From Candidatus Alistipes stercorigallinarum (GTDB taxonomy: Bacteria > Bacteroidota > Bacteroidia > Bacteroidales > Rikenellaceae): a DNA stretch of 64,000 nucleotides. The DNA lies in the NCBI GenBank assembly GCA_019119475.1, contig DWWY01000001.1, forward strand, positions 12,260 to 76,259. The letters run 5' to 3'. The notes below the pieces were generated by a model that saw nothing but the letters and a program-made list of their open reading frames with translations, ran no database searches and was not told where the DNA came from. The position numbers and the translations under genes were made by a program. Position 1 is the first letter of the stretch, and the number at the start of each line of letters is the position of its first letter. Shown here piece after piece: positions 1-64,000 of the stretch.

Positions 1-400
1 GGCGCGGCACAACGGGGGTGATGCGCCGGTTGAGCAACTCTGTCAAGCGTGTGATGACTTCGGGATGAACGCCCGAGCAGGCCTGAGCGAAGGTCTGGAT
101 GCGGGCCAGCATGGCCGCGCGCACGCACACCTCGGGAAGCGGTTCTCCGGCTCCTGTGGCATGGCTGCGTATGATGTTGTACTGGAGAGCGCGGAGGTTC
201 TCGTCGTCTATTCGGTACTGGGCCATTGGGCCGAACCCGGTGTTGATGCCGTAAATTACCTTGTCGGAGGCGAACTCCGCCAGAAAGCGGTGGCACTCCT
301 CTACTTCGCGGAGCATCCGTTCCTGAGGAACGACCTGCTCCTCCCCGAAGAGGATGCGTCCGACTTCGTCCAAACGCAGTGTGTTCCCGATTTGTATCAT
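1..400 (-). CDS. HAL/PAL/TAL-family (MIO-dependent) aromatic amino acid ammonia-lyase, 5' part only; runs off the left edge
   Basis: Hand translation of the minus strand from ATG at 400 gives 133 open codons: MIQIGNTLRLDEVGRILFGEE...SDKVIYGINTGFGPMAQYRI...LQYNIIRSHATGAG...SGVHPEV...LLNRRITPVVPR. YGINTGFG and SH.G.G are family hallmarks; the ASG motif would lie just beyond the edge. Confidence 0.88.
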   Translation of the reverse strand, partial: MIQIGNTLRLDEVGRILFGEEQVVPQERMLREVEECHRFLAEFASDKVIYGINTGFGPMAQYRIDDENLRALQYNIIRSHATGAGEPLPEVCVRAAMLARIQTFAQACSGVHPEVITRLTELLNRRITPVVPR

Positions 401-522
401 GATACGGTTCTGTTAGGTTGAGGCGGGTGGTTTCCCCGGCAGCTCTTACCGCCCGGATGCGATGTGTCTGTCCGCGGATGCGGCGAGATGTGTCGGTCCA
501 TTTCAAGGAGGCAAGAGTCGGA

Positions 523-530
523 CAAAGATA
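523..530 (-). promoter_or_regulatory. Bacteroidota -7 promoter box (TATCTTTG) for the ammonia-lyase
   Basis: CAAAGATA on + matches the TAnnTTTG consensus, about 120 nt upstream of the ATG at 400. Confidence 0.6.
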
Positions 531-849
531 AGAATTATTTCGCAAAAAGTGTCCGTTTTGGAGCAAAGTTCTTGCGTATTTGGCTCGGTCGGTATGAAAT
601 TCGGTCGCACGAATTTTCCTGTTGTGAGACTGACGTACACCGTCCAGTCGTTCGTGCGCGCGATATCGGCCGTATCGGCTGGTTCTGCCGAGGTGGAGCG
701 TAGGCCCTTAAAGGGTTTCCCGGGAACCGGTACTGCTTTCTCTTGTCTTGGGCGGGCGGGGGTGTGACGTCGTGGCCGGAACGCTCTCCGTGTGGCCGGA
801 TTGTGTCGGACGGACGAATTTTTCGGGAAGAAATCGGAGTCCTTTTTTG

Positions 850-876
850 TATTTTTGCGACGAAATAGTATTTTTG
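850..876 (+). promoter_or_regulatory. Two tandem -7 boxes (TATTTTTG at 850-857 and 869-876) upstream of the ECF sigma gene
   Basis: Two matches to TAnnTTTG in an AT-rich patch 55-80 nt before the start. Confidence 0.5.
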
Positions 877-931
877 TTTTCAGAGGTGTTTTGCATTTCG
901 TGGCGAAAGCCCCTCTTCGGAGCCTTTTCCG

Positions 932-1543
932 GTGAGCCGTCAGACGATGAAAGAGATACACGACAAGTTTGATTTCGGGGACAACCGCCGGGTTGTCGAT
1001 GCACTTCGCAACGGGGACGAGCATTGTTTCGACGCTCTGTTTCGCCAGAGCTACCGACCGTTGTGCGCCTATGCCTCCCGGTTCGTGCCGCTGGCCCGGG
1101 CCGAGGAGCTGGTGCAGGATACGCTCATGTGGCTCTGGGAGAATCGCCGGACGCTCATCCCCGAGATGCCCCTCAAGTCGCTGCTTTTTACCATCGTCAA
1201 GAACAAGTCGCTCAACAGCGTCTCCCGCAACAGCATCAAGAGCCGGGTCATCCGGCAGCTCGCCGCCGATTTCGAGGAGGAGTTCGACGACCCCGACCTC
1301 TACTTCGAGAGCGAACTGGTGCGGCGATTCTCTGCAGCCCTGCGGCGCATGCCCGAGGAGTTTCAGCAGGCCTTCCGGATGCACCGGCTCGAGGGCAAGA
1401 CCCATCGCGAAATCGCCGAGGAGCTTCACGTATCGCCCCAGACGGTCAACTACCGCATCGGGCAGACGGTGCGCTTCCTGCGCGAGGAGCTCAGCGACTA
1501 CTGGCCGCTCATCTTGCTACTCTTCTGGCCCGAAGGACGATGA
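932..1543 (+). CDS. ECF sigma-70 factor of the Bacteroidota PUL-associated type
   Basis: Region 2 AEELVQDTLMWLWENR, region 4 HRLEGKTHREIAEELHVSPQTVNYRI and a hydrophobic C-terminal tail; precedes fecR-susC. The start could be 947. Confidence 0.93.
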   Translation: MSRQTMKEIHDKFDFGDNRRVVDALRNGDEHCFDALFRQSYRPLCAYASRFVPLARAEELVQDTLMWLWENRRTLIPEMPLKSLLFTIVKNKSLNSVSRNSIKSRVIRQLAADFEEEFDDPDLYFESELVRRFSAALRRMPEEFQQAFRMHRLEGKTHREIAEELHVSPQTVNYRIGQTVRFLREELSDYWPLILLLFWPEGR

Positions 1544-1570
1544 GCATGCGCCCGCCGTCCCGTTCCGCCC

Positions 1571-1782
1571 GCCGCGTTGCACGGTCTGCCGCGCCGGGCT
1601 GTCTTTTGCCTCTGCCGGCCCTGCGTGCTGTCCCGCCGCGTTGTACGGTCTACCGCGCCGGGTTGTCTTTTGCCCCTGCCGTCCCTGCGTCCCGCCCACC
1701 GCGTTGCACGGTCTGCCGCGCTGGGCTGTCTTTTGCCTCTGCCGGCCCTGCGTGCTGTCCCGCCGCGTTGTACCGTCTTCCG
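1571..1782 (+). repeat. 63-64-bp tandem repeat, about 3.3 copies, between sigma and anti-sigma genes
   Basis: Units at 1571-1634, 1635-1697, 1698-1761 and a partial unit from 1762; core gccgcgttgYacggtctRccgcgcYgggYtgtcttttgcc. Confidence 0.9.
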
Positions 1783-1970
1783 TGCTGCCGCGCCCTCTGC
1801 GGCAGGCTCCGGAGCGGCCCCAATCCGTTGCAGCCGGCCCTGCGCCCCCTCCCCGGTTTTCGGTGCGGCATCGCCTTCGGCGGTGCGGATTTGCAGGGTG
1901 TCCGAAATTTTTTTGAAAAAAATATGCAGGACGGTTAGTAACCCGCCCCGCTCGATTGTATTACTATCAG

Positions 1971-2981
1971 ATGAAGACCCGAATGGAGCCATACCAGATG
2001 TCCGAAATGACCGAAGAACGGCTTGCCGCCTACCTGCGCGGTGAGCTCGAAGCTGCCGAAGCCGCCGAAATCGAGGCGTGGTACGATGCTTCGCCCGCCA
2101 ACCGCAAGATGCTGGGCGAGGTCTATTATATATTGTACCTCAACGACCGGCTCCGCGCTTCGGAGGAGGTCGATGTCGAGCGCTCGCTGCGCGCCCTCAA
2201 GTCGCGGATGCACCCGCGCCGGGGCATCGTCCGCCGCTGGGTGTGGCGCTCGGCCGCCGCAGCGGCTGCCGTGCTGCTCGTCGCCGGCGCTGCCGTGAAG
2301 ACCGTCTCCCTTGCCGAGCGGCTCGAGCGCCCCGTGGTGGTCTACACCGATTTGGGCGAACGCTCGCAGGTCGAGCTGCCCGACGGTACGAAGGTGTGGC
2401 TCAACTCGTCGAGCCGCGTCGAGTACCGCACCCCGCTCTTCTCGCGCGAACGCCGCGTGACGATGACCGGCGAGGCCTATTTCGAGGTGGAGCACGACCC
2501 CGCGTCGCCCTTCATCGTCTCGAGCGGCGGCCTGGATGTCAAGGTGCTCGGCACGAAATTCAACATCCGCAACGACAATGCGCGCCACTGTGTGACCACC
2601 GTGCTGCTCGAAGGAGCCGTGGCTGCCTCCGTCTCGGGCAGCGAGGACTATTCGGTCCGCCTGCGCCCGTCGCAGATGCTGGTCTTCGACACCCGGACCA
2701 AATACATGCAGCTGCACAACTGCGAGGCGGCCGGCAACTCGATTGACTGGATTGAGGGCCATTTCCGCTTCGAACAGAACACCTTCGAGGAGATTGTGGC
2801 CGAGCTGGAGCGCTACTACAACGTCACGGTGCGCTTCATGGACGACAGCCTGCGCAAGGAGCGCTTCTCGGGCGACTTCCACCTCGAGGACGGCATCTAC
2901 CACATCATGTCGGTGCTTCAGCTCACCTACAAGTTCCACTACAAGGTGAACTGCGAGGATATCGAGCTCTATGCCAATTGA
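1971..2981 (+). CDS. fecR: FecR-family anti-sigma factor
   Basis: N-terminal EERLAAYLRGEL...IEAWY, one TM helix, VELPDGTKVWLNSSS, GEAYFEV, VKVLGTKFN motifs. ATG 1971 chosen (the track starts at TTG 1956); 1998 or 2007 are possible. Confidence 0.93.
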   Translation: MKTRMEPYQMSEMTEERLAAYLRGELEAAEAAEIEAWYDASPANRKMLGEVYYILYLNDRLRASEEVDVERSLRALKSRMHPRRGIVRRWVWRSAAAAAAVLLVAGAAVKTVSLAERLERPVVVYTDLGERSQVELPDGTKVWLNSSSRVEYRTPLFSRERRVTMTGEAYFEVEHDPASPFIVSSGGLDVKVLGTKFNIRNDNARHCVTTVLLEGAVAASVSGSEDYSVRLRPSQMLVFDTRTKYMQLHNCEAAGNSIDWIEGHFRFEQNTFEEIVAELERYYNVTVRFMDDSLRKERFSGDFHLEDGIYHIMSVLQLTYKFHYKVNCEDIELYAN

Positions 2982-3146
2982 CGGGCTGGCCCCGGCGGCC
3001 GCCCATTCTGCCGATAAATCGAATAAACGGAATAATAACGAAAAAAACCAAATTTGCCTATGAGTAGATAACTACTACCCGACCGGACGTCGCCTACGAG
3101 GCGGCGAAAAATCACCAGAATTTCTAATTCAAACCTAAAACAACCA

Positions 3147-6100
3147 ATGAAAAAACAAACCTTGTCGCAGGCAGGGGGAGTACAGCGTGTATGCGCACGT
3201 CTCCGTTGCCTGTTGATTGTTCCGGTCCTGCTCTTTTCATGCTTCGGCCTGAAGGTATCCGCGCAGACCGCTGAGCCTCGTGTCACCGTAGAGGTGCGCG
3301 ACGCATCCATTTCCCAAGTTTTCCAGACTATTCAGGAGCAGACGGGCTTCTCGTTCGTCTACAATACCTCCGACATCAACCCCGCCGAGAAGGTGAGCCT
3401 CACGGCGCGCGATGCGGCTCTTCCTTCCGCACTCGACCAGCTCTTCGCCGGCCGGGGTATCAACTACACGGTCAAGGACAAGCATATTGTGCTTTCGAAG
3501 ACGGCCGACCAGGTTGCCGCCCAGCCCGCCAAGGGCGCCAAGGGCGTATCGGGTTCGGTCAAGGACGCCAAGGGCCTCGGCCTGATTGGCGCCACGGTGG
3601 TCATCAAGGGTACGACCGTCGGTGTGGCCGTCGACCTGGACGGTAACTTCACGCTGCCCCAGGCCAAGCCGGGCGACGTGCTCGAGGTATCGCTCATCGG
3701 CTATGCCAAGCAGGAGGTTCCCGTAACGGGCAACGTGCCTCTGAACATCGTCATGCACGAGGACACCGAGGTGCTCGACGCCGTGGTGGTTACCGCCCTC
3801 GGTATCAAGCGCTCGGAGAAGGCGCTGACCTACAACGTGCAGGAGGTGTCGGGCGACATCGTCAACGGTGTGAAGGACGCCAACTTCGTCAATGCCCTCT
3901 CGGGTAAGGTTGCCGGTCTCCAGATTAACGCCAGCGCCTCGGGTACGGGTGGTTCGACCCGCGTGGTGATGCGTGGTGTGAAGTCCATCAACGGCAACAA
4001 CAACGCCCTCTACGTAATCGACGGTATCCCGATGCCGAGCCTCCGTTCGGAGCAAACGGCCGGTATGTTCGAGACGCCCGACGGCGGTGACTACGAGGGT
4101 ATCTCGAACCTCAACCCCGAGGACATCGAGTCGATGTCGATTCTGTCGGGTGCAACGGCAGCCGCGCTCTACGGTTCGCAGGGTGCCAACGGTGTGATTC
4201 TCATCACCACCAAGAAGGGTGAGGAGGGCCGCCTGCAGGTGAACTACTCGAACAACACCACCTTCACGACCCCGTTCGTGATGCCGCAGTTCCAGAACCG
4301 CTACGGCACCGACGAGACCTCGCCCTCGATGAGCTGGGGTTCGCGTCTGGCCCATCCTACTTCCTATGACCCGAAAGACTTCTTCCAGACCGGCTACAAC
4401 ACGACCAACTCGGTGTCGGTATCGGCCGGCAACTCGCGCAACCAGACCTACGCTTCGGCCGCTTCGGTCAACTCGCGCGGTATCATCCCCAACAACGTCT
4501 ACAACCGCTACAACTTCTCGCTGCGCAATACGACGGAGCTGGTGAAGGACAAGCTGACGCTCGACGTGGGTGCCACCTACATGCGCCAGTACGACCGCAA
4601 CTCGCTCGTGCAGGGTCTCTACCACAACCCGCTGATTCCGATTTACCTCTTCCCGCGCGGTGACGATATCCGCAAGTACCAGATTTACGAGCGCTACGAC
4701 GCTACGGCCGGCTACATGAAGCAGTTCTGGCCCCTCGAGTTCCTCACCGGTGTCGAGAACCCCTACTGGGTGACCAACCGCGAGCTCTTCGAGAACACGG
4801 CGCACCGCTACACCTTCAACGGTACGATGAAGTGGGACATCACCGACTGGATGAGCCTGACGGGCCGCGTCCGCATGGACAACACGACGATGAACTACAC
4901 GCGTAAAATCTACGCATCGTCGGACGAGCTCTTCGCTTCGGAGTACGGTAACTACCTCGACCACACGGCTACCCACAACAACCTCTATGCCGACGCCCTG
5001 CTGAGCATCGACAAGATGTTCCTCGACGACCGCCTTTCGCTGCAGTTCAACCTGGGTGCCAGCCTCATGGACGACAAGAACAAGGTGACCGGCTTCGAGG
5101 GCCATCTGGCTACGCAGCCCAACAAGTTCACCCTCTACAACATCGACATGAAGCACTCGCAGACGAAGCCCTACATCAGCCGCTACCACGACCAGGTGCA
5201 GGCCGTCTACGCAACGCTCCAGCTGGGTTGGAAGGGTATGATTTACCTCGACGTGACGGCCCGCAACGAGTGGGCGTCGCAGCTGGCCTTCACCGGCGAC
5301 TACAAGATTTTCTATCCCTCGGTGGGTCTCTCGGCCGTGATTTCGTCGATGGCCGACCTCTCGAAGGCAGGCATCTCGTTCCTCAAGGTGCGCGCTTCGT
5401 ATGCCGAGGTAGGTAACGCCCCCGAGCGCTACATCACGGGCCGCAACTACCCCATCAACGTGGGCGGTATCGTCTCGTCGGAGGCCGCCGCACCGGCCGT
5501 CAACCTGACGCCCGAGCGCACCAAGTCGTTCGAGGTGGGTCTCAACGCCAAGTTCCTGGGCAACAAGTTCTGGTTGGATGCTACCTACTACAATACCAAT
5601 ACCTACAACCAGCTCTTCAAGTACGACGCACCTCCCAGCACGGGTTACAAGCAGGCCTACATCAACGCCGGTAAGGTGAACAACTGGGGTATCGAGGCCG
5701 TTGTGGGCTACAAGAACAAGTGGCGCGACTTCTCGTGGTCGACCAACGTCAACTTCTCGATGAACCGCAACAAGGTCAAGGAGCTGGTTCCCGAGGGCAC
5801 GCGCGACGTGGCCGGCAACCTGGTTACCGTCAACGAGGTCAACATGGACTACGGCGGCTACCGCATGCAGGTCAAGAAGGGCGGCTCCATCGGCGACTTC
5901 TACGTGACGGGCTTCAAGACCGACGAGTTCGGCAAAATCTATGTCGACCCCAACTCCAACACGGTGATTCTCGACCGCAACACGTGGATTTACGGTGGTA
6001 ACACCGAGGCCCGCTTCCGCTGGGGCTGGAACAACCAGTTCGCATGGAAGGGCATCACGCTCGGCGTCCTGATTGACGCCCGTATCGGCGGCCGCGGCGT

Positions 6101-6506
6101 ATCGGCCACGCAGGCCCTGATGGACGAGTACGGTGTATCGGAGGCTTCGGCCCAGGCCCGCGAGAACGGCGGCGTATGGGTATCCGACACGCAGCAGATT
6201 CCCGACGCGAAGACCTTCTACGCCAACTCGGGTAACGGTATGTCGATGCTGGCCCACTACGTCTACTCGTTGACCAACGTGCGCCTGCGCGAGCTGACGC
6301 TCGGTTACGACCTGCCTTCGAAGTGGTTCAACGACAAGCTGAACATGAGCGTTTCGCTCGTCGGCCGCAACCTCTTCATGTTCTACAACAAGGCTCCGTT
6401 CGACCCCGAAATCACCGCTTCGACGGGTACCTACTATCAGGGACTCGACTACTTCATGCAGCCTTCGGTCCGCACCATCGGCTTCAGCGTAAGACTCCAA
6501 TTCTAA
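3147..6506 (+). CDS. susC: SusC/RagA TonB-dependent transporter with N-terminal STN signalling extension
   Basis: STN-like domain, carboxypeptidase-regulatory-like domain, plug VLDAVVVTALGIKR, GATAAALYGSQGANGVILITTKKG, terminal Phe. Confidence 0.96.
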   Translation: MKKQTLSQAGGVQRVCARLRCLLIVPVLLFSCFGLKVSAQTAEPRVTVEVRDASISQVFQTIQEQTGFSFVYNTSDINPAEKVSLTARDAALPSALDQLFAGRGINYTVKDKHIVLSKTADQVAAQPAKGAKGVSGSVKDAKGLGLIGATVVIKGTTVGVAVDLDGNFTLPQAKPGDVLEVSLIGYAKQEVPVTGNVPLNIVMHEDTEVLDAVVVTALGIKRSEKALTYNVQEVSGDIVNGVKDANFVNALSGKVAGLQINASASGTGGSTRVVMRGVKSINGNNNALYVIDGIPMPSLRSEQTAGMFETPDGGDYEGISNLNPEDIESMSILSGATAAALYGSQGANGVILITTKKGEEGRLQVNYSNNTTFTTPFVMPQFQNRYGTDETSPSMSWGSRLAHPTSYDPKDFFQTGYNTTNSVSVSAGNSRNQTYASAASVNSRGIIPNNVYNRYNFSLRNTTELVKDKLTLDVGATYMRQYDRNSLVQGLYHNPLIPIYLFPRGDDIRKYQIYERYDATAGYMKQFWPLEFLTGVENPYWVTNRELFENTAHRYTFNGTMKWDITDWMSLTGRVRMDNTTMNYTRKIYASSDELFASEYGNYLDHTATHNNLYADALLSIDKMFLDDRLSLQFNLGASLMDDKNKVTGFEGHLATQPNKFTLYNIDMKHSQTKPYISRYHDQVQAVYATLQLGWKGMIYLDVTARNEWASQLAFTGDYKIFYPSVGLSAVISSMADLSKAGISFLKVRASYAEVGNAPERYITGRNYPINVGGIVSSEAAAPAVNLTPERTKSFEVGLNAKFLGNKFWLDATYYNTNTYNQLFKYDAPPSTGYKQAYINAGKVNNWGIEAVVGYKNKWRDFSWSTNVNFSMNRNKVKELVPEGTRDVAGNLVTVNEVNMDYGGYRMQVKKGGSIGDFYVTGFKTDEFGKIYVDPNSNTVILDRNTWIYGGNTEARFRWGWNNQFAWKGITLGVLIDARIGGRGVSATQALMDEYGVSEASAQARENGGVWVSDTQQIPDAKTFYANSGNGMSMLAHYVYSLTNVRLRELTLGYDLPSKWFNDKLNMSVSLVGRNLFMFYNKAPFDPEITASTGTYYQGLDYFMQPSVRTIGFSVRLQF

Positions 6507-6519
6507 AACAACCGACCCA

Positions 6520-14840: not shown

Positions 14841-15212
14841 GTGCAGGTCCTGTAAGCCGGGTTCTGTCCCCGGAGTTGCCTCCGGGTCTCTGTCATTTAT
14901 CTAGGGCGGCAGTCTCCTGCCGTCTCAAGCAACCTACCCCCCGGCATCGGGCGAGCAACCCTTAATTGCCGGTATACATGGTCTTGCAACCCACGAGACG
15001 TACGGCCAGATGACATCGCTGCCTCTGCGGTGGGCTCTTACCCCGCCTTTTCACCCTTACCACCGCTCCGGGCGAACCCGGGATGCGGGGCGGTTATTCT
15101 CTGTTACGCTCCTATACCCTCACGGATATCAAGTGATTGGCTTGCGTGGCGCTCTGCGTTGCCCGGACTTTCCTCCCCCGGACGAACCGGCGGCGACAGA
15201 GCGGACCTGCAC
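14841..15212 (-). ncRNA. rnpB: RNase P RNA, bacterial type A
   Basis: Minus strand has GAGGAAAGUCC near the 5' end and ACAGAACCCGGCUUA near the 3' end; termini GUGCAGGUCC / GGACCUGCAC pair as P1; about 372 nt. Confidence 0.97.
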
Positions 15213-26281: not shown

Positions 26282-27526
26282 ATGAAAACCTGTCTCTCCC
26301 TTCTTGCGGCGGCTGCCCTCCTGCTTGGCTTGTGCTCATGCGGCGGCAACCGCTTCCGGCTCGAGGTCGAAACGGCCCCCGAGACCGGGTGCGACAACTG
26401 CGCGGTCTACCTCTTTGCCCGCATGGGCAACCAGCTCACGCTGGTCGACTCCGCGCGGCTGGTCCGTCATGCGGCGCAGCTCTCGGGTCCGCTTCCCGAC
26501 CCTGAGAGCCTGGTCGAACTGCTCATCCCGGGGCAGGGGAGCTACATCCTGCTTGCAGCCCGCGGGGAGCGGGTCTCGCTGCGCATCGACACTGCCGCAC
26601 GCTCCTTCTTCCCCGCCTGCCGCGGCTCGTTCGCCACGGAGCGCATGACCGAAATCAGCCGCCGCTATCGGGAAATCGGATACGGGGCGCTGGAGCAGCT
26701 GCGCAGCGAGGCGGCCGTTCCGGGGCTCGATGCCCGGCGCCGGCAGGAGCTCGAGACCCTGCTTGCGGCCCGCGAGGCGGAGCTCGACTCCCTGGCCCGC
26801 TCGGCGATTTTCAACGACCGGAGCGCGCTGCTGGCCGTCGTTGCGACGATGTGGTATGCCGATACCTCTCCGAACATGACCGAGGACAGCCTCCGCACCC
26901 TGGTCCGGCAGCTTCGTGCACGCTTCCCCGGAAGCCCCTGCCTCAACTCGCTCGATGAGCAGGCGGCGCCCGAGCCGCCGACCCGCGAGAGCATGCGGAC
27001 GGAGAACCTCCGTGCGCGGCTTTCGGGCCTTCCGGAGCCCTATCCCGAGGGGGCGGAGCAGGCACCCGGGGGCGCACCGGAGCCCGGGACAGAGGCGTGC
27101 TCCCTGCCGCCCTACGCCGTTGGAGAGCGGGTCGAAGCCTTCTCGCTTCCCGACGGGGAGGGGGTGAGGCGGAACCCGCTGGAGGCTACGGAGGAGTATG
27201 TGCTGCTCGACTTCTGGGCGTCGTGGTGCGCTCCCTGCCGCAGGGAGCTCCCCGGGCTGCTCGATGCGGCGAGCCGTTTCGACGGGGTGCTCTCCGTCTG
27301 CGCCGTCTCGGTCGACGAGGATGCCGCCGCCTGGAGGAGCGCCGTGGAGCAGGAGGGGCTTTCGCCGCTGCTCAACCTCCGCCTCGACCGCAGCGACGCC
27401 TCGTTCGCGGAGCTGGTCGCCCGCTTCGACATCCGGACCATCCCGCACAACCTGCTGCTGGATGGGGAGCGCCGGGTCGTGGCGGTCGATTTGCGGGGCG
27501 ACGCCCTGCGCGAGTGGCTCGAGTAG
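26282..27526 (+). CDS. TlpA/ResA-type thioredoxin-fold lipoprotein
   Basis: Lipobox LCSC; C-terminal VLLDFWASWCAPCRRELP and IPHNLLLD. Confidence 0.85.
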   Translation: MKTCLSLLAAAALLLGLCSCGGNRFRLEVETAPETGCDNCAVYLFARMGNQLTLVDSARLVRHAAQLSGPLPDPESLVELLIPGQGSYILLAARGERVSLRIDTAARSFFPACRGSFATERMTEISRRYREIGYGALEQLRSEAAVPGLDARRRQELETLLAAREAELDSLARSAIFNDRSALLAVVATMWYADTSPNMTEDSLRTLVRQLRARFPGSPCLNSLDEQAAPEPPTRESMRTENLRARLSGLPEPYPEGAEQAPGGAPEPGTEACSLPPYAVGERVEAFSLPDGEGVRRNPLEATEEYVLLDFWASWCAPCRRELPGLLDAASRFDGVLSVCAVSVDEDAAAWRSAVEQEGLSPLLNLRLDRSDASFAELVARFDIRTIPHNLLLDGERRVVAVDLRGDALREWLE

Positions 27527-36725: not shown

Positions 36726-38192
36726 CTACCTTGCCGGAGCGGCGAGCGCCGCGAAGTTGCGGCGCAGCTCCTCGCGGTCGTCGAAATGGTGGCGCTCGTC
36801 GCCCACAATCTGGTAGGTCTCGTGTCCCTTGCCGGCCACGAGCAGCAGGTCGCCCGGAGCGGCGAGCATCACGGCCGTGCGGATGGCCTCGGCGCGGTCG
36901 GTGATGCGCAGGTATCGGTCGCCGGGCTGCAGTCCGGCGACCATCTCGTCGAGAATCGCCTCGGGCGATTCGTGGCGCGGGTTGTCCGAGGTGAAGATGG
37001 CCGTCGAGGCGTACTTGACGGCAATCTGCGCCATCTCGGGCCGCTTCGTGCGGTCGCGGTCGCCGCCGCAGCCGCAGACGACGATGAGCTGCTGTGCGGG
37101 GCGGCGCACCTCGCCGAGCGTCTGGAGCACGTTCTCCAGAGCGTCGGGCGTGTGGGCGTAGTCCACCACGGCGGTGGTGCCGTTGGCGGCGCGGATGAAC
37201 TCCAGCCGGCCGCTCACGGGGTGCAGGGCGCTCATCGCGCGCAGCACCTCCTCGCGGTCGAATCCCAGCAGGCGCGCCGTGCCGTAGACGGCCAGCAGGT
37301 TGCTGGCGTTGAAGCGTCCGAGGAACCCGACCCACACCTCGCTGCCGTCGATGCGCAGCAGCATGCCGTCGGGGTGCTGCTCGAGGATTTTGGCCCGGAA
37401 GTCGGCCATCGAGCGCAGCGAGTAGGAGAACTTCCGGGCGGCGGTGTTCTGGAGCATCACCGCGCCGTTGCGGTCGTCGGCGTTGGTCAGCGCGAAGGAG
37501 CCGCGCGGCAGCCGGTCGAAGAAGAGCTTCTTGGCGCGGATGTACTCGGCGAAGGTCTTGTGGTAGTCGAGGTGGTCGTGGGTGATGTTGGTGAAGAGTC
37601 CTCCGGCGAAGTCGAGCCCGCGCGTCCGCTCCTGGACGATGGCGTGCGACGAGCACTCCATGAAGCAGTAGTCGCAGCCGGCGTCGACCATGCGGCGCAG
37701 CATGGCGTTGAGCCGCACGGGGTCGGGCGTGGTGTGGGTCGATTCGATGCACTCCTCGTCGATGCGGTAGACCACCGTCGAGATGAGTCCGGCGCGGTAG
37801 CCGAGCGCCCGCACCAGGTCGTAGAGCAGCGTGGCGGTGGTGGTCTTGCCGTTGGTGCCCGTCACGCCGACGAGCTTCAGCGAGCGGCTCGGGTAGCCGT
37901 AGAAGGCCGCCGCCGCATCGGCCAGTGCGCCGTGGGCGTCCTTCACGCGTACGAAGGCGACCCCTTCGGGCCGCACGGCGGGCATGCGCTCGCAGACGAC
38001 GGCCGAGGCGCCGGCGGCGAGTGCCGCGGCGATGAAGTCGTGCCCGTCGCACTGCGTGCCGGGGATGGCGAAGAAGCAGCTGCCCTGCCCGACGGCACGC
38101 GAGTCGAAGACGAGTGCCTCGATTGCGGCGTCGCGGGGCCCTGCCAGCTCCTCGACGGCTATGTCGTGCAAAAGTTCTTCCAAACGTTTCAT
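36726..38192 (-). CDS. murE: UDP-MurNAc-dipeptide:diaminopimelate ligase
   Basis: From ATG 38192: GVTGTNGKTTT, HTTPDP, MECSSH, DHLDYH, DYAHTPDAL, DNPR specificity motif, GKGHETYQ. Confidence 0.97.
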   Translation of the reverse strand: MKRLEELLHDIAVEELAGPRDAAIEALVFDSRAVGQGSCFFAIPGTQCDGHDFIAAALAAGASAVVCERMPAVRPEGVAFVRVKDAHGALADAAAAFYGYPSRSLKLVGVTGTNGKTTTATLLYDLVRALGYRAGLISTVVYRIDEECIESTHTTPDPVRLNAMLRRMVDAGCDYCFMECSSHAIVQERTRGLDFAGGLFTNITHDHLDYHKTFAEYIRAKKLFFDRLPRGSFALTNADDRNGAVMLQNTAARKFSYSLRSMADFRAKILEQHPDGMLLRIDGSEVWVGFLGRFNASNLLAVYGTARLLGFDREEVLRAMSALHPVSGRLEFIRAANGTTAVVDYAHTPDALENVLQTLGEVRRPAQQLIVVCGCGGDRDRTKRPEMAQIAVKYASTAIFTSDNPRHESPEAILDEMVAGLQPGDRYLRITDRAEAIRTAVMLAAPGDLLLVAGKGHETYQIVGDERHHFDDREELRRNFAALAAPAR

Positions 38193-38254
38193 TGCGTATC
38201 TCTGTTGTTTTCTGACAAATCCTTGTTCTCGGCGGGTCTCTTCCGCCCTGCGGG

Positions 38255-38360
38255 CCTGAATCATCCCGGGGCTCCGAATCATTCCGCCGCCATGCATCAT
38301 TCTCGGCCCTGCATCATCCCGTCGCCCTGCATCATTCTCGGCCCGGCGTCATCCCGCCGT
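38255..38360. repeat. Six degenerate 17-18-bp tandem units between ftsI and murE
   Basis: cctgaatcatcccggggc / tccgaatcattccgccgc / catgcatcattctcggc / cctgcatcatcccgtcgc / cctgcatcattctcggc / ccggcgtcatcccgccgt. Confidence 0.8.
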
Positions 38361-57024: not shown

Positions 57025-57055
57025 CAGGGGCGGAAGCACAACGCTTCCGCCCCTG
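57025..57055. terminator. Hairpin between convergent rsmG and lrp
   Basis: Perfect 13-bp stem caggggcggaagc / gcttccgcccctg. Confidence 0.7.
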
Positions 57056-57149
57056 TCCGTTTCGGGGTATAGAGCGACCTGCGGCGTGCGCGCACGGGAA
57101 ATGCCCGGTGGGGAGTACTCGTCCGCGCGCCGGCCTCTTCGGGGGAGGG

Positions 57150-57623
57150 TTACTCCTCGATGAAGTCGACGTTCACCTGACGCTGGAACGTCTCCTGCAG
57201 CGAGATGAAGGTCTCGGTGGTCGAGACGCCCGGAATGCGGAGGATGCCGTCGAAGATGGTGCGCATCAGATGCTCGTTGTCCAGACAGTAGAGCTTCGCC
57301 AGGATGTTGTAGCTGCCCGTGATGAAGTGGCACTCCACAATCTCGGGCACGTCGCGCAGCTTCTCCATCGTCTGCATCAGCTGCTGCGGGTCCTTGATGA
57401 TGATGCCGATGTGGGCACACACGTCGAATCCCAGCATCTTGGGGTCGACGATGAGGCGGCTGCCCAGGATGACGCCCGATTCGTCCAGCTTGCGGATGCG
57501 CTGGTGGATGGCGGCTCCCGAAATGCCGCATTCGCGGGCGATTTCGAGGAACGGCATGCGGGCGTTCTTAATCAGATACTTCAGGATTTTCCGGTCGATG
57601 GCGTCCAGTGCGATTTTCGGCAT
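57150..57623 (-). CDS. Lrp/AsnC-family transcriptional regulator
   Basis: LDAIDRKILKYL..NARMPF.EIARECGISGAAIHQRIRKL, ECHFITGSY. Confidence 0.93.
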   Translation of the reverse strand: MPKIALDAIDRKILKYLIKNARMPFLEIARECGISGAAIHQRIRKLDESGVILGSRLIVDPKMLGFDVCAHIGIIIKDPQQLMQTMEKLRDVPEIVECHFITGSYNILAKLYCLDNEHLMRTIFDGILRIPGVSTTETFISLQETFQRQVNVDFIEE

Positions 57624-57657
57624 GGCGATGGTTGGTTTATTCAGTCAGTGAGTCCGT

Positions 57658-58845
57658 TTATTTGAGAACATTGAGCTCCTTGCCCACCTTGATGAAGGCG
57701 GCGATGCAGCGGTCGAGCTGTTCGAAGGTGTGTCCGGCCGATACCTGCACGCGGATGCGGGCCTGTCCCTTCGGCACGACGGGGTAGTAGAAGCCCGTCA
57801 CGAAGATGCCCTCGTCCTGCAGACGGGCGGCGAAGTCCTGCGAGAGCTTGGCGTCGTAGAGCATCACGGCGCAGATGGCCGACTGCGTGGGCTTGATGTC
57901 GAAGCCGGCGGCCATCATGCCGCTGCGGAAGTGCTCGACGTTGGCCACCAGACGGTCGTGGATTTCGTCGCTCTCGGCCAGCATGCGGAAGAGTTCGATG
58001 CCGGCACCCACCACGGCGGGGGGCAGCGAGTTGGAGAAGAGATAGGGGCGCGAACGCTGGCGCAGCATGTCGATGATTTCGCGACGGCCCGTCGTGAAAC
58101 CGCCCACGGCGCCGCCGAAGGCCTTGCCCAGCGTGCCGGTGAGGATGTCGACCTGGCCGCGCAGGTTGAAGAGCTCGGTGATGCCGCGGCCCGTCTTGCC
58201 CAGCACGCCGGCCGAGTGGCACTCGTCGACCATCACCAGCGCGTCGTACTTCTCGGCCAGTGCGCAGATTTTGTCCAGCGGCGCGGCGTTGCCGTCCATC
58301 GAGAAGACGCCGTCGGTGACGATGATGCGGAAGCGCTGTGCCTGGGCGCGCTTGAGGCAGTCCTCCAGCTCCTCCATGTCGGCGTTGGCGTAGCGGTAGC
58401 GCACCGCCTTGCAGAGGCGCACGCCGTCGATGATGGAGGCGTGGTTGAGCGCGTCGGAGATGATGGCGTCCTGCTCGGTGAAGAGCGGTTCGAAGACACC
58501 GCCGTTGGCGTCGAAGCAGGCGGCGTAGAGAATCGTGTCCTCGGTGCCGAAGTAGTCGGAGATGGCCTTCTCGAGCTCCTTGTGGATGTCCTGGCAGCCG
58601 CAGATGAAGCGGACGGAGGACATGCCGAAGCCGCGGGCGTCCATGGCGCGCTTGGCCGCCTCGACGAGGCGCGGGTTGTCCGACAGCCCGAGGTAGTTGT
58701 TTGCACAGAAATTCAGTACCTTGCGGCCGCCGACCTCGATTTCGGCACGCTGGGGCGAACAGATGATGCGTTCGTTCTTGTAGAGACCCGCGGCCTTGAT
58801 GTCGGCGAGTTCCTGTTGCAGATGGGCTTTGATTTTTCCGTACAT
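57658..58845 (-). CDS. kbl: Glycine C-acetyltransferase (2-amino-3-ketobutyrate CoA ligase)
   Basis: GLYKNERII, NFCANNYLGLS, SVRFICG.QDIH, TDGVFSMDG, TGTLGKAFGG, ARIRVQ. Confidence 0.96.
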   Translation of the reverse strand: MYGKIKAHLQQELADIKAAGLYKNERIICSPQRAEIEVGGRKVLNFCANNYLGLSDNPRLVEAAKRAMDARGFGMSSVRFICGCQDIHKELEKAISDYFGTEDTILYAACFDANGGVFEPLFTEQDAIISDALNHASIIDGVRLCKAVRYRYANADMEELEDCLKRAQAQRFRIIVTDGVFSMDGNAAPLDKICALAEKYDALVMVDECHSAGVLGKTGRGITELFNLRGQVDILTGTLGKAFGGAVGGFTTGRREIIDMLRQRSRPYLFSNSLPPAVVGAGIELFRMLAESDEIHDRLVANVEHFRSGMMAAGFDIKPTQSAICAVMLYDAKLSQDFAARLQDEGIFVTGFYYPVVPKGQARIRVQVSAGHTFEQLDRCIAAFIKVGKELNVLK

Positions 58846-58897
58846 GGTTCGTTATGGTTTTAAGGTTTTGTCTTGTTTCGGAGTGACAATCTGTTAG

Positions 58898-58905
58898 CAA
58901 AGATA
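58898..58905 (-). promoter_or_regulatory. -7 box (TATCTTTG) of kbl-lrp
   Basis: CAAAGATA on +. Confidence 0.75.
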
Positions 58906-59128
58906 GGTAAAATTCGGAAGAAACGGAACTTTCGTGCGAATATTTTCATTTTCGGGGTTACGAATTGTTAGGCTGCGGCCCCGCTGGCCGCTTCCGGCGG
59001 GAGCCAATAGGCTGGTGCATGGGCGTTTGCGCCGGTTTCATCCTTCGGCCCAGCCGCGGGCGTGCGGCTGCCCTCGTTCCGCCTCTTTTTCCGGTCCCGA
59101 TGCGCATCGGATGCGTCCCGGACGGTCT

Positions 59129-59387
59129 CCCGAAAATATATCCGGGAACATGTCCGAAGATATGTCCGGAAACCTGTCCGGGGTCCTGCCCGAAAGAGCC
59201 TCGCGAAGGAGCTCCGGATGGCTCCGAAAAGAGGCCCGAACGGCCCTCCGGGAAGTCCTGCAAACGACGCTCTGGGAAACCCGCAGACGGCGCTCCGGGA
59301 AGTCCTGCAAACGGCGCTCCGGGAAGTCCTGCAAACGGCGTTCCGGGAAACCCTGCAAACGACGTCCCGGGAAGTCCTGCAACGGCG
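59129..59387. repeat. Compound array: degenerate 12-bp units followed by six 23-24-bp units (ctccgggaagtcctgcaaacggcg)
   Basis: 24-mer units at 59246, 59270, 59293, 59317, 59341 and 59365; 12-mers such as tccgggaacatg, tccgaagatatg and tccggaaacctg from 59129. Confidence 0.9.
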
Positions 59388-59526
59388 TCCCTCGGGCGCC
59401 TCGGAGCCCGGCACCCGGGGTCCCGGACCTGCCGCAGCCCTCGCGCGCGACGGCCGGAGCCCGTTTTATTCGGTTGCGGGAGAACATTTTTCTGTTATTC
59501 GAATAACGGAATCCGAAATATTTCCG

Positions 59527-59534
59527 TAAATTTG
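59527..59534 (+). promoter_or_regulatory. -7 box (TAAATTTG) of pgk
   Basis: Consensus match 60 nt before the start. Confidence 0.7.
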
Positions 59535-59594
59535 TCACGAAATAAATCCGCGAAGGAAAGGTTTCAATAAAAAATACTTAAAAATCAAACAGCT

Positions 59595-60857
59595 ATGATT
59601 TCGATTGACAACTACGATTTCAAAGGCAAACGCGCGATTATCCGCGTGGACTTCAACGTGCCCCTCAACGACAAGGGCGAGGTGACCGACGACACGCGTA
59701 TCCGTGCCGCCATGCCCACCGTCAAGAAGGTGCTCGCCGAGGGCGGCTCCGTGATTCTGATGTCGCACATGGGCCGTCCCAAGAAGAATCCCGACCCCAA
59801 ATATTCGCTCGAGCAGATTGTTCCCGCCATCGAGAAGAACCTGGGCGTGAAGGTCCAGTTCGCCGGCGACTGCATGGGTGAGAAGGCTGCCCAGATGTGC
59901 AAGGACCTCAAGCCGGGCGAGGTTGTCCTGCTCGAAAACCTCCGCTTCTATGCCGAGGAGGAGGGCAAGCCCCGCGGTCTTGCGGAGGATGCCACCAAGG
60001 AGGAGAAGGACGCCGCCAAGAAGGCCCTCAAGGAGGGTCCCCAGAAGGAGTTCGTCAAGAAGCTGGCTTCGTATGCCGACTGCTACATCAACGACGCCTT
60101 CGGTACGGCTCACCGCAAGCACGCTTCGACCTATCTGATTGCCAAGCACTTCCCCAACGACAAGATGTTCGGCTACCTGATGGAGAAGGAGGTCAAGGCC
60201 ATCTCGTCGCTCATGGAGGCTCCGCAGCATCCCTTCTGCGCCATCATCGGCGGTTCGAAGGTTTCGACCAAAATCGGCGTCATCAAGTCGCTCATCGAGA
60301 AGGTTGATTCGATTGTCATCGGCGGCGGTATGACCTATACCTTCGCGGCAGCCCAGGGCGGCAAGGTCGGCGGTTCGATTTGCGAGCCCGACATGTTCCC
60401 CGTGGCTCTGGAGATTCTCGAGCTGGCCAAGCAGAAGGGCGTGAAGCTCGTCATGTCGCCCGACGCCCTGATTGCCGACGCATTCTCGGCCGACGCCAAC
60501 ACCACGACGGCTCCCGCCAACAACATCCCCGACGGATGGGAAGGCGTCGACATCGCCGACGAGGGCAAGAAGATTTTCCGCGAGCACATCCTCGGCTGCA
60601 AGACCATCCTGTGGAACGGCCCCGTGGGTGTCTTCGAAATCGACAAGTTCGCAACGGGTTCGAAGGAGGTGGCACTGGCCATCGCCGAGGCTACGAAGAA
60701 CGGCGCCTACTCGCTCATCGGCGGCGGCGACTCGGTAGCCTGCATCAACAAGTTCGGTCTGGCCGACCAGGTTTCCTACATCTCGACGGGCGGCGGCGCG
60801 CTGCTCGAGTACATCGAGTTCGGCGACCTGCCGGGTGTAGCGGCCATCCGCGACTAA
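59595..60857 (+). CDS. pgk: Phosphoglycerate kinase
   Basis: [50 protein letters not shown]. Confidence 0.99.
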
Positions 60858-60869
60858 CGACAAAACGAG

Positions 60870-60895
60870 GGGCCGCGGCGAGCGGCCCTTTTTTT
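60870..60895 (+). terminator. Intrinsic terminator after pgk
   Basis: gggccgc / gcggccc stem followed by T7. Confidence 0.8.
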
Positions 60896-61050
60896 CGACA
60901 ACCCCGTCAAGATACCTCGAAACCCGACGGCATGCGCGCCCGACCCCGAAGCTCCCTGCGGGGTGTCGCCTTCCGGCGGCGGGCAGAGGCCGGTTCCCCG
61001 GCCGCAATCCGCACCGCGACGGCCGCACGTGTCAAAAACAGAACAAACAC

Positions 61051-63078
61051 ATGAAGAAAATTCTTTTCATCGCAGCTATGGCTTGTATGGCTTCCGCCTG
61101 CCAGAATACGCCCAAGACGCCGGCCATCGACGTGACGAACATGGACCTCACGGTGGCTCCCAACGTCGACTTCTATCAGTATGCAACCGGCGGGTGGCAG
61201 GCCAAAAACCCGCTCAAACCCGAATATTCGCGCTATGGTGCCTTCGACGTAATCGGCGAAAACAACCAGAAGCGCATCAACGAACTCTTCCAGGAGATGT
61301 CGAAACTCGATGCGGCCAAGGGCAGCGTCGAGCAGAAGATTTCCGACCTCTACAAGATGGGTCTCGACTCCGCACGGCTCAATGCCGAGGGTGCCGCCCC
61401 CATCCAGAGCAAGCTCGGTGAGCTGCTCGCCATCTCGGACCGCTCGCAGCTGACGGCCGCCATCGCCGACCTGCACCACTCGGTAGGCAACCCCTTCTTC
61501 GGCGTGGGTGTCGAGTCCGACCTGATGAACAGCAACATGAACGCCCTCTACATCTCGCAGAGCGGCCTGGGCATGGGCACGCGCGACTACTATGTCGACG
61601 AGTCGAATGCCGAAATCAAGAAGGCCTACGGCGAGATGCTCGCCCGTCTGTTCCGCCTTGCGGGCCTCGAGCAGGCCGAGCAGGCTGCCGCCGATGTCGT
61701 TTCGCTCGAGACGCGCATGGCCGAGAAGATGTGGTCGAACGTCGAGCTGCGCAACATAGTTGCCCAGTACAACCCCATGTCGAAGGCCGACTTCGAGAAG
61801 ACCTACGACGCCATCGACTGGCCGACCTATTACAAGGCGATGGGCATCGGTGACTTCGACACGATTATCGTCACCACGCCGTCGGCCGTCGCCAATGTCA
61901 ACGAACTGCTCAAGACAGCCTCGCTCGACGAGCTGCGCTACTACCTGGCCGCACAGTACGTCACGGCAGCCGCCTCGTACCTGAGCGACGAATTCCAGCA
62001 GGCGTCGTTCGACTTCTTCGGCAAGGTGATGTCGGGCCAGCAGGAGATGAAGCCCCGCTGGAAGCGCGCCATGTCGGTGCCCAACGGCACGCTGGGTGAG
62101 GCCGTCGGCGAGATGTACGTGGCCAAGTACTTCCCGGCCAAGGACAAGGAGCGCATGCTCGCTCTGGTGAAGAACCTGCAGACGGCTCTTTCGGAGCACA
62201 TCGCCGCCCTCGACTGGATGTCCGACGCCACGAAGGCCAAGGCTCAGGAGAAGCTCTCGACCTTCACGGTGAAAATCGGCTATCCCGACAAGTGGAAGGA
62301 CTATTCGACGCTCGAGATTGACCCCTCGAAGAGCTACTGGGAGAACATCGTCAACGCCAGCGCCTGGTATACGGCCGACAACATCGCGAAGCTGGGCAAG
62401 CCGGTCGACCGCGACGAGTGGCACATGACGCCGCAGACGGTCAACGCCTACTATAACCCGACGACCAACGAAATCTGCTTCCCGGCCGCCATCCTCCAGC
62501 CGCCGTTCTACAATCCCGAGGCGGACGATGCGGTCAACTACGGCGCCATCGGCGTGGTGATTGGCCACGAGATGACCCACGGATTCGACGACCAGGGCCG
62601 TCAGTTCGATAAGGACGGCAACATGAACAACTGGTGGACCGAGGAGGATACGGCCGCCTTCAACGAGAAGGCCGCCGTGCTGGTTAAGCAGTTCGACGCC
62701 ATCGAGGTGCTTCCGGCCAAGGACGGACAGCCGGCCTTGATGGCCAACGGCTCGCTCTGTCTTGGCGAGAACATCGCCGACCAGGGCGGTCTGCGCGTAG
62801 CCTGGACGGCATTCCACAATTCGCTCAAGGATAAGGGTATGCCTGAGCCCATCGACGGCTTCACGGCCGACCAGCGCTTCTACCTGGCCTACGCGACGCT
62901 GTGGGGCCAGAACATCCGTGATGAGGAGGCTGCCCGTCTGACGAAGCTCGACGTACACTCGCTGGGCAAGTGGCGCGTCAACGCCACGCTGCGCAACCTG
63001 CAGAGCTTCTACGACGCCTTCGGCATCACCGACGGCCCGATGTTCCTGCCCGAGGAGGAGCGCGTGATTATCTGGTAG
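61051..63078 (+). CDS. pepO: M13 (neprilysin/PepO-like) zinc endopeptidase lipoprotein
   Basis: Lipobox ASAC, VNAYY, GHEMTHGFD (HExxH), ENIAD.GG. Confidence 0.95.
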   Translation: MKKILFIAAMACMASACQNTPKTPAIDVTNMDLTVAPNVDFYQYATGGWQAKNPLKPEYSRYGAFDVIGENNQKRINELFQEMSKLDAAKGSVEQKISDLYKMGLDSARLNAEGAAPIQSKLGELLAISDRSQLTAAIADLHHSVGNPFFGVGVESDLMNSNMNALYISQSGLGMGTRDYYVDESNAEIKKAYGEMLARLFRLAGLEQAEQAAADVVSLETRMAEKMWSNVELRNIVAQYNPMSKADFEKTYDAIDWPTYYKAMGIGDFDTIIVTTPSAVANVNELLKTASLDELRYYLAAQYVTAAASYLSDEFQQASFDFFGKVMSGQQEMKPRWKRAMSVPNGTLGEAVGEMYVAKYFPAKDKERMLALVKNLQTALSEHIAALDWMSDATKAKAQEKLSTFTVKIGYPDKWKDYSTLEIDPSKSYWENIVNASAWYTADNIAKLGKPVDRDEWHMTPQTVNAYYNPTTNEICFPAAILQPPFYNPEADDAVNYGAIGVVIGHEMTHGFDDQGRQFDKDGNMNNWWTEEDTAAFNEKAAVLVKQFDAIEVLPAKDGQPALMANGSLCLGENIADQGGLRVAWTAFHNSLKDKGMPEPIDGFTADQRFYLAYATLWGQNIRDEEAARLTKLDVHSLGKWRVNATLRNLQSFYDAFGITDGPMFLPEEERVIIW

Positions 63079-63120
63079 CGGAGCCTGCGGCCCTGTGCCG
63101 CGCTTCGGCCTGAGACGAAT

Positions 63121-63160
63121 GACTCCCGGACCCGTTGATGGGTTCGGGAGTCTTTTTTTT
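63121..63160. terminator. Intrinsic terminator after the M13 gene
   Basis: gactcccggaccc-gttgat-gggttcgggagtc followed by T8. Confidence 0.85.
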
Positions 63161-63232
63161 GAGGGTGCGGCCGGATGGCCCGGATGGGGCGGGGCGGCGA
63201 TGCCGACAGGGGGAGGCCGGCGTTCCGGAGCG

Positions 63233-63655
63233 CTATTGCTCCTTCGGTCGCCGGGCGTTGAGGATGCGCTCGATTTCGGCCATGAACTCCTCGGCCGGGG
63301 CGGCTCCCCGGATGCGGCCGAGCAGTTCGCCCTCGGTGTCGAAGACCAGGTAGAGGGGTACGGCCCGGCTGCCGTAGCGTTTCAGCAGCTCGCGGCCCGT
63401 CGTCTTGTCGACGTCGTACTTGGCGCAGACGAAGCGGCTTGCCATGAACTCGCCCACGTCGCTGCGCGAGAAGACCTCGCGCTCCATCATCTGGCACGGA
63501 GGGCACCACGTGGCGTAGAGGTCGATGAAGACCAGTTTTTGCTGCTCGATGGCCATGCGGCGCACGGCGTCGGTCGAGCGGGTGGAGAATCGGACCTGCG
63601 CTCCGGCGCTTGCGGCGCCGAGCAGCAGCAGAAGCATCAGTGCGAATCGTTTCAT
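63233..63655 (-). CDS. Exported thioredoxin-family protein
   Basis: Signal peptide, VFIDLYATWCPPCQMM, YDVDK. Confidence 0.88.
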   Translation of the reverse strand: MKRFALMLLLLLGAASAGAQVRFSTRSTDAVRRMAIEQQKLVFIDLYATWCPPCQMMEREVFSRSDVGEFMASRFVCAKYDVDKTTGRELLKRYGSRAVPLYLVFDTEGELLGRIRGAAPAEEFMAEIERILNARRPKEQ

Positions 63656-63711
63656 GGCAATGTGTCGTTTTTGAACTGTTGCGTTTCGGGGTGGGCAGGC
63701 TGCGTGGACTA

Positions 63712-63976
63712 CGACGGGCTGCGGCTGGCAGCGACGGGCTGCGGCTGGCAGCGACGGGCTGCAGCGGGCTGCAGCGGGCTGCGGTTTGCCTCCGCATGCG
63801 CTGGACCGGAATATCCCGCCTCCTGCGGCCGAGCTTGTCCCTCCTGCGGCCGGGGTACCTCCCCTCCTCTAAAGCCGGGACGTTTTCCCGTCTCCTGCAG
63901 TCGGGGTACCTCCCCTTCTCTAAAGCCGGGGCTTGTCCCTCCTGCTTTCAGTCCGTTTCCCTCCCGCGGCCGGGGT
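63712..63976. repeat. Two adjacent arrays: 20-bp/10-bp units (63712-63784) and ~50-bp units (63820-63976)
   Basis: cgacgggctgcggctggcag x2 then cagcgggctg x2; ctcctgc...ggggtacctcccct.ctctaaagccggg at 63841 and 63892. Confidence 0.85.
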
Positions 63977-64000
63977 CTCCCGCTCCCGATGGCCGGAAGG

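Follow-up and report, generated by a model that had tools for sequence, protein, structure and literature searches.

Near-complete loss of GATC from the chromosome of Candidatus Alistipes stercorigallinarum, with a candidate restriction-modification cassette as its probable cause

The tetranucleotide GATC is almost entirely missing from the chromosome of Candidatus Alistipes stercorigallinarum (assembly GCA_019119475.1, hereafter G000). The stretch analysed here, referred to as the window, comprises 64,000 bases of its core chromosome (contig C13, positions 12260-76259), in which no GATC was present on either strand. The depletion is word-specific, goes beyond composition, Markov and codon-preserving expectations and is shared with a sister species. 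The two species also share a two-gene cassette located on another contig (C15:319-2491), coding for a C5 cytosine methyltransferase and for an uncharacterised protein of 279 amino acids (aa). We consider it probable, at roughly 60%, that this cassette is a long-resident GATC restriction-modification (R-M) pair and that it caused the purge in both species.

The window displayed a GC content of 64.3% and carried a SusC/SusD polysaccharide utilization locus, the dcw cell-wall cluster and further housekeeping genes, as judged from the Pfam content of its open reading frames (ORFs). A string search over positions 1 to 64000 returned zero GATC. Dinucleotide-preserving shuffles yielded 350 ± 17 both-strand matches, i.e. 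about 175 sites, while 210 sites were expected from base composition and 261 from a second-order Markov model. The initial annotation, made by eye, had reported this absence and estimated about 65% GC and about 200 sites, figures that proved close to the actual ones. G000 is a metagenome-assembled genome (MAG) of 2.37 Mb in 41 contigs, 99.76% complete with 0.35% contamination and 62% GC. At this scale, 433 GATC were counted versus some 9,900 expected, corresponding to a second-order observed/expected ratio (O/E) of 0.044. Outside a limited number of clusters (see below), only 86 sites were left in 2.28 Mb of core DNA, about 1% of expectation.

Gene calling relied on a simple codon-usage model and provided an approximate set of 1,556 genes covering about 79% of the genome; the 1,506 genes called outside the GATC clusters composed the core set. 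Shuffling synonymous codons within each of these genes, a codon-preserving comparison that had been recommended at the outset, gave 8,968 ± 60 sites against 55 observed (O/E 0.006). All three reading frames were purged, with observed/expected counts of 31/1,094, 6/333 and 18/7,541. Non-coding DNA was purged as well, as had been noticed for intergenic DNA of the window, since only 31 of the 86 non-island sites fell in the approximately 0.47 Mb outside called core genes. Sibling words did not share this fate: genome-wide second-order O/E reached 1.05 for GATA/TATC, 1.38 for GATT/AATC and 1.63 for GATG/CATC, and an equal depletion of all NATC and GATN words was therefore not observed. Apart from CTAG, which is described at the end, the other four-base palindromes ranged from 0.70 to 1.43. 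When sites were sorted according to flanking purine or pyrimidine, the four flank classes were depleted alike, indicating that the avoided word is the tetranucleotide itself. Avoidance of RGATCY or of another six-base subset was excluded on the same basis.

Codon choice bore a clear imprint of this avoidance. Genome-wide, ATC accounted for 81-91% of Ile codons in other contexts and for 0.3% after a G-ending codon, where ATT (87%) and ATA (12.5%) were used instead. Likewise, Asp was encoded by GAT in 0.4% of cases before C-starting codons versus 17-26% elsewhere. This low figure included the pairs Asp-Pro, Asp-His, Asp-Gln and Asp-Arg, where only the T>C change from GAT to GAC removes the site and where 99.6% of Asp codons were GAC. 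Leu codons following GAT were TTG or TTA in 93% of cases, compared with about 4% after non-Asp codons and 1.6% after GAC, and Ser codons following an xGA codon switched from TCN to AGY. The codon upstream of Ile was affected too. G-ending four-fold codons made up 15% of those before Ile versus 51% before Met, which offers the same AT context, and they were replaced mainly by C-ending codons (73% versus 41%), a transversion, with no excess of A-ending ones. Since every available synonymous route was used, including T>C and G>C, selection on the word itself is indicated rather than a single mutational bias. The initial annotation had pointed to the ATC-to-ATT change after a G-ending codon and to GAT TTG in place of GAT CTG. 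Its four examples are present on the forward strand of the window, and both rules hold for the whole genome. The examples are Leu-Ile written CTG ATT (3582..3587, within a SusC-like gene at 3147-6506), Gln-Ile written CAG ATT (3921..3926), and two Asp-Leu pairs written GAT TTG (2349..2354 and 27488..27493).

The residual sites were far from evenly distributed. Out of 433, 347 were grouped in 21 clusters totalling about 90 kb, so that 80% of the sites occupied 3.8% of the genome. Cluster GC content varied between 44 and 64%, mostly between 44 and 58%, versus 62% for the genome. Tyrosine integrases were encountered in clusters on contigs C38, C39, C21 and C3. A Mob_Pre relaxase, a Fic protein and a type I HsdR were also located on C39, a TraG coupling protein on C8, and a reverse transcriptase, a DpnD/PcfM-ART polyvalent protein and a KilA/ANT antirepressor on C38. 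Other clusters carried an AcrB/OEP efflux operon (C29:36602-39101), a Cas9 fragment (C22) and a capsule epimerase (C24), and four clusters were found within 0.1-1.0 kb of tRNA genes. The residual sites sit in recently acquired DNA that is not yet depleted, as had been anticipated for any residual clusters. The density of GATC thereby provides a built-in map of recent acquisitions. Tolerance of such islands implies present-day protection of GATC, presumably through methylation, and a small cost per site.

Two of these islands displayed particular features. The efflux operon on C29 contained 24 GATC in 2.5 kb at a host-like GC content of 64%, about 1 kb from a tRNA gene; it has the appearance of DNA recently received from an Alistipes-like donor that was not depleted. 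The GATC-rich island on C22, also near a tRNA gene, included an ORF of 698 aa (C22:20306-22402, or L182:2807-4903) with Cas9 HNH and RuvC-III regions, possibly a truncated or compact Cas9.

Comparison with relatives was based on segments of 5-21 kb (mostly about 20 kb) sampled around murE (36726..38300 of the window, reverse strand) in about 140 genomes, and GATC depletion was mapped onto a FastTree phylogeny of this single gene. The nearest species was the sister Ca. A. excrementigallinarum, a chicken-gut MAG whose MurE is 92-93% identical to that of G000. Both were paired with a support of 100 and were nested among non-depleted species (O/E 0.95-1.05). The sister contained no GATC around murE, where about 80 were expected, and 32 versus 547 expected in 137 kb taken from seven other places. 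In the next relatives (73-78% MurE identity), O/E was 0.88-1.12, and extra sampling of these gave observed/expected counts of 271/272 in G085 and 414/443 in G183. As only G000 and its sister were depleted within a subclade whose neighbours show O/E values around 1, the purge is a derived state of this lineage. At the level of the genus, the distribution was patchy: O/E values formed a continuum from 0 to 1.1, and the MurE tree required at least 12-20 changes of state.

Divergence between the two species also indicates how recently the purge was maintained. Among 15 orthologues, 16.2% of four-fold degenerate sites differed between G000 and the sister. Turnover was simulated by redrawing synonymous codons from the genome's own usage, context being ignored; the per-lineage share of this divergence lies between runs in which 5.5% and 11% of four-fold sites changed. 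Such turnover rebuilt 1,198-2,417 GATC in core genes (O/E 0.13-0.27). The observed O/E values, 0.006 for the core genes of G000 and about 0.06 for the sister, were below the simulated rebuild, which shows that selection against GATC acted in both lineages since their split. The responsible agent should consequently still be present, unless it was lost only very recently.

Known GATC enzymes were searched for in G000. No match was obtained with the models for DpnII/MboI endonucleases (PF04556), MutH/Sau3AI (PF02976, which did give a match in a control genome), N6_N4 methyltransferases (PF01555), DndC (TIGR03183, other dnd and ssp genes not being included in the search) or Vsr. The DpnI model (PF06044) did not match either, a weak negative since it matched none of 14 control genomes. 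The DNA methyltransferases found in G000 amounted to three: a type I HsdM on C39, a weak Dam-class candidate on C5 and a C5-type enzyme on C15. The type I system was set aside as a driver because of its position inside a GATC-rich island and because site avoidance does not accompany systems of type I (Rusinov et al. 2015, PMC4687349). The Dam-class candidate (C5:43003-43833, 276 aa) displayed a DPPY motif and a single weak PF02086 match (34.7 bits). This weakness, its position in a low-GC islet and the failure to find it in the depleted sister led to its rejection as a driver as well. Among the systems named in the initial annotation, the DpnII/MboI, Sau3AI/MutH, DpnI and DndC types were thus not found, while a methyltransferase of the Sau3AI clade was recovered from C15. 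As to the low-GC islet itself (C5:42372-43833, or L045:4373-5834), the Dam-class gene is preceded there by a truncated thymidylate-synthase-like gene of 212 aa (PF00303, E = 2e-19). This combination was not found in the sister species and may constitute a DNA-modification module.

The C15 cassette is located directly after a 5S rRNA gene, and a location of the responsible genes outside the window, as initially assumed, is consistent with this candidate. The methyltransferase (C15:319-1575, 418 aa, PF00145 E = 1e-59) is convergent with the gene of the 279-aa protein (C15:1655-2491, a plausible start having been chosen). Both genes were syntenic and intact in the sister, at the same position between the 5S rRNA gene and an ABC transporter, with 77-80% nucleotide identity. 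Amino acid identity was 83% for the methyltransferase and 72% for its partner. Among 376 Alistipes genomes, the pair was exactly co-extensive with the depleted lineage formed by G000 and its sister, the 279-aa gene being not found in the 374 other Alistipes species searched.

A full-length match (E = 1e-154) connected the methyltransferase with one specific type II methyltransferase model of PADLOC. Its closest annotated homologues were 43-47% identical over 98-100% of the length, target-recognition region included. Their neighbours were, on a Priestia plasmid, a gene annotated as 'Sau3AI family type II restriction endonuclease', on a Bacillus plasmid a MutH-like gene and on a Macrococcus plasmid a gene for a BglII/BstYI-family enzyme. 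Among 40 relatives, a close homologue was encountered only in G039 (57%) and G036 (50%), both Bacteroidales, and in each case it adjoined the PF02976 Sau3AI/MutH matches of that genome. The enzyme belongs to an M.Sau3AI-like clade and, judging from the neighbours of these 43-57% identical homologues, would produce GAT(5m)C. Cytosine methylation at GATC is on record for Bacteroidales in Prevotella bryantii TC1-1 (Accetto et al., according to the citing passage of Johnston et al. 2017, PMC5608340). The methyltransferase gene itself retains a GATC that is conserved between both species (G000:C15:697-700 and sister G132:C1:1990-1993). It overlaps codons D127-R128 (GAT CGN) of the catalytic ENV-D-R motif and could reflect chance, a recent allelic replacement or a regulatory site.

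The 279-aa partner belongs to a family with 434 clusters at 50% identity showing E ≤ 0.001. The 26 closer clusters bore neither functional name nor Pfam domain. Alignment of 29 members revealed 33 invariant columns, K64, E68, D84, E184, D185 and K187 being among the invariant residues, and the motifs GKxGKE, NDMxP, RNxxxxxxH, EDVKY and GRxNNMxTY. AlphaFold2 provided a confident model (predicted local distance difference test 91.4, predicted template modelling score 0.87). What points to an endonuclease cutting unmethylated GATC is its gene context. Partner homologues of 38-70% identity adjoined a C5 methyltransferase of about 420 aa from the same clade in all 12 distinct contexts. The two genes were convergent in 11 of these and co-directional, with two genes between them, in L206. 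A small HTH_3 gene was found directly upstream of the partner in L164 and L169, with a 23-nt overlap in L164; such placement and overlap are typical of controller protein genes in R-M operons. One of the 12 contexts also carried a Vsr gene.

Chromosomal copies of the cassette in other Bacteroidales were flanked by housekeeping DNA poor in GATC, the observed/expected counts being 1/77 (L164), 1/69 (L169), 0/46 (L205, in a related host and at the insertion site also used in L169) and 3/31 (L204). Most mobile elements carrying the pair were GATC-free (0 versus about 20 for L068-L080, 0 versus 42 for L207). Host DNA beside a mobile cassette can nevertheless be normal, as in L068 with 18 GATC in 2.2 kb. 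A GATC-free element next to a normal host flank is expected if the system depletes its host only after long residence.

Two additional features were recorded among these loci. In the chromosome represented by L164, L165 and L168, GGCC was about 10-fold depleted (7 versus 71) besides GATC and CTAG, suggesting that this host experiences another pressure towards site avoidance. Furthermore, an extra gene of approximately 201-210 aa, without Pfam match, often stood beside the methyltransferase and a 250-aa family member (L068-L075, L169-L170 and L206-L208). The G000 cassette lacks this gene, which may serve elsewhere as a third, optional component.

Taken together, we infer for the C15 cassette a GATC specificity, a nuclease function of the partner and a causal link with the purge. 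The methyltransferase would protect the chromosome at GATC, and this protection would lapse occasionally, after replication or repair or through fluctuations of expression. During a lapse, each GATC would be a possible self-inflicted double-strand break, with a small cost per site. Over a long residence, protein-neutral substitutions removing sites would be favoured until about 1% of the expected number is left in core DNA. A simple mutation-selection balance would place scaled selection per site at around 5. Incoming DNA (integrative and conjugative elements, phage remnants, the type I R-M island, the efflux operon) has a normal GATC density. It would be tolerated because it becomes methylated, and residual sites would therefore cluster there. 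The long-term selection against GATC by a DNA-targeting or DNA-modifying system proposed in the initial annotation is thus supported by the escape routes, the maintenance in two lineages, the island residuals and the candidate pair. The more specific proposal is that the partner is a GATC-specific endonuclease with a fold unlike solved structures, which replaced a MutH-like Sau3AI nuclease and drove the purge. We advance it tentatively, the odds being somewhat against it.

Several observations weigh against the C15 cassette as the cause. Its GC content is 46% versus 62% for the genome, a foreign composition, and two GATC occur within its methyltransferase gene, including the conserved one, which is unexpected under a long purge. 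The specificity ascribed to the methyltransferase derives from the gene neighbourhoods of homologues that are 43-57% identical to it. Concerning the partner, no similarity to any nuclease was detectable. No Pfam match was recorded even at E ≤ 10 for the 29 members, and neither an NCBIfam or PADLOC match nor a PDB match by sequence or profile was obtained. Foldseek with the structural model returned nothing significant in PDB (best E 0.49) or BFVD (best E 0.22). Mobile cassettes L171 (O/E 0.47) and L206 (O/E 0.38) displayed mild depletion, with GATC within genes, and GATC recognition may vary across family members. Depletion does track the cassette across related genomes, but the link is not exclusive. 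Strong depletion affects about 15-25% of sampled Bacteroidales genomes, which makes the co-occurrence weaker evidence. Other Alistipes were strongly depleted (O/E 0.00-0.15) without the cassette, among them G006, G010, G013, G014, G003 and G022 (L011-L022, L116-L119, L144, L162). In these, DpnII, MutH/Sau3AI, a Sau3AI-clade methyltransferase and the 279-aa family were not found. The genus thus harbours a further driver, which could be at work in G000 too. Finally, binning of this MAG could have missed a mobile R-M island.

A rival reading is that selection came from another GATC-targeting system, either unrecognised, lost in binning or alternating within the pan-genome like pneumococcal DpnI/DpnII, in which case the C15 pair would have another specificity or be a passenger. 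Most of the strongly depleted Alistipes species sampled lack DpnII, Sau3AI/MutH and a C15-type pair, which speaks for it, and so do the foreign composition of the cassette and the sites kept in its own methyltransferase gene. DpnI-like enzymes are still conceivable, given the silence of that model in control genomes. Moreover, Rusinov et al. (2015, PMC4687349) observed GATC avoidance in 38 genomes out of 42 that possess methyl-directed GATC enzymes, and they related it to systems alternating within a species. Yet G000 is nearly complete, and neither DpnII, MutH/Sau3AI, N6_N4 methyltransferase nor DndC was found in it. Its sole Dam-class match is weak and confined to an islet that the equally depleted sister lacks. 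The C15 pair, in contrast, coincides exactly with the depleted species pair in the genus, and homologous chromosomal cassettes elsewhere lie in GATC-depleted DNA. We therefore regard another agent as rather unlikely.

A mainly mutational origin was also considered, in which GAT(5m)C left without Vsr repair would be a deamination hotspot (GATC>GATT/AATC) and the host DNA would not be cut. A Sau3AI-clade C5 methyltransferase is present and Vsr was not found, ATT is the main replacement of ATC after G with an ATT:ATA ratio of 7:1 versus 1.2-3.9:1 in other contexts, and GAT-TTG, the C>T route, represents about a quarter of Asp-Leu escapes. Routes other than deamination nevertheless dominate elsewhere, namely GAT>GAC before Pro, His, Gln or Arg and G>C before Ile without any excess of A. 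This spectrum rules out deamination of 5-methylcytosine as the sole cause. In addition, hotspot decay alone would stop well short of a core O/E of 0.006, vertebrate CpG having an O/E of about 0.2, and the conservation of the partner (33 invariant columns in 29 homologues) argues for selection. A mainly mutational purge accordingly appears very unlikely. Translational, codon-pair or composition bias is more improbable still, to the point of being hardly credible. Codon-pair effects do occur in bacteria, and the largest class of expected GATC in core genes is the codon junction xxG|ATC. But the purge affects all three frames and also the DNA outside called genes, and it spares both sibling words and the foreign islands of the same cell. 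Close relatives, moreover, share the same proteins and a similar GC content, yet have O/E values of about 1. The preferred explanation thus remains the residence of the C15 R-M pair.

Avoidance of recognition sites in hosts of type II R-M systems was reportedly described by Gelfand and Koonin in 1997. As in such hosts, a short palindromic site is under-represented in the G000 chromosome. The difference resides in its extent (O/E 0.044 overall and 0.006-0.01 in the core) and in the proposed endonuclease, which lies outside known families. For comparison, a site was termed 'under-represented' at Kr ≤ 0.78, its avoidance was found to depend on the residence time of the R-M system, and the phenomenon was ascribed to occasional self-restriction under incomplete methylation (Rusinov et al. 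2015, PMC4687349). A closer parallel is provided by Calothrix PCC 7103, which underwent a chromosome-wide, lineage-specific fall in GATC as well. It kept 16% of the expected sites, the most extreme value among 97 cyanobacteria, and the fall was explained by 'infection' with a restriction enzyme specific for GATC (Elhai 2015, PMC4390886). G000 keeps 4% overall and about 1% in the core. Calothrix possesses a recognisable GATC restriction enzyme and a Dam-type methyltransferase, whereas in G000 the methyltransferase is of the C5 type and its partner is unrecognisable. With Sau3AI systems, the C15 cassette shares its methyltransferase, which is 43-57% identical over its full length to Sau3AI-associated methyltransferases from Bacillota plasmids and Bacteroidales. 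The partners are different: the G000 protein has 279 aa and is not a PF02976 member, while the Sau3AI-family gene of L081 codes for about 490 aa without detectable homology to it.

G000 may thus be viewed as an extreme example of known restriction-site avoidance, accompanied by a candidate new restriction-enzyme family. Our literature search found no report of GATC avoidance in Alistipes. Site avoidance in host chromosomes is as a rule weak, and its cause is difficult to pin down. Here it is near-complete, is confined to two sister species with unaffected nearest relatives and coincides with a vertically inherited pair, which offers a clean natural experiment on the fitness cost of an R-M system for its own host and on the speed of the genomic response. 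If the partner is indeed a GATC endonuclease with a novel fold, this would be one of the deepest site purges in a cellular chromosome and a natural gauge of the selection exerted by R-M systems on their hosts. The candidate family, which has no known fold, is easily testable. Since most of the depleted species lack a recognisable GATC enzyme, the patchy and recurrent depletion also suggests that further unrecognised GATC-targeting systems occur in gut Bacteroidales. On the practical side, tetranucleotide-based binning, DpnII Hi-C and MboI libraries will behave abnormally with such genomes.

CTAG was the only other tetranucleotide as rare as GATC in G000, with 81 sites and a second-order O/E of 0.030. 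It was near zero in almost all sampled Alistipes whatever their GATC status, the exceptions being L156 (0.71) and G017 (0.56). Its rarity is a genus-wide trait, separate from the GATC purge and with a separate cause. CTAG is under-represented in most genomes irrespective of their R-M content (Rusinov et al. 2015, PMC4687349). In the window, a single CTAG was located at about position 14901 (C13:27160).

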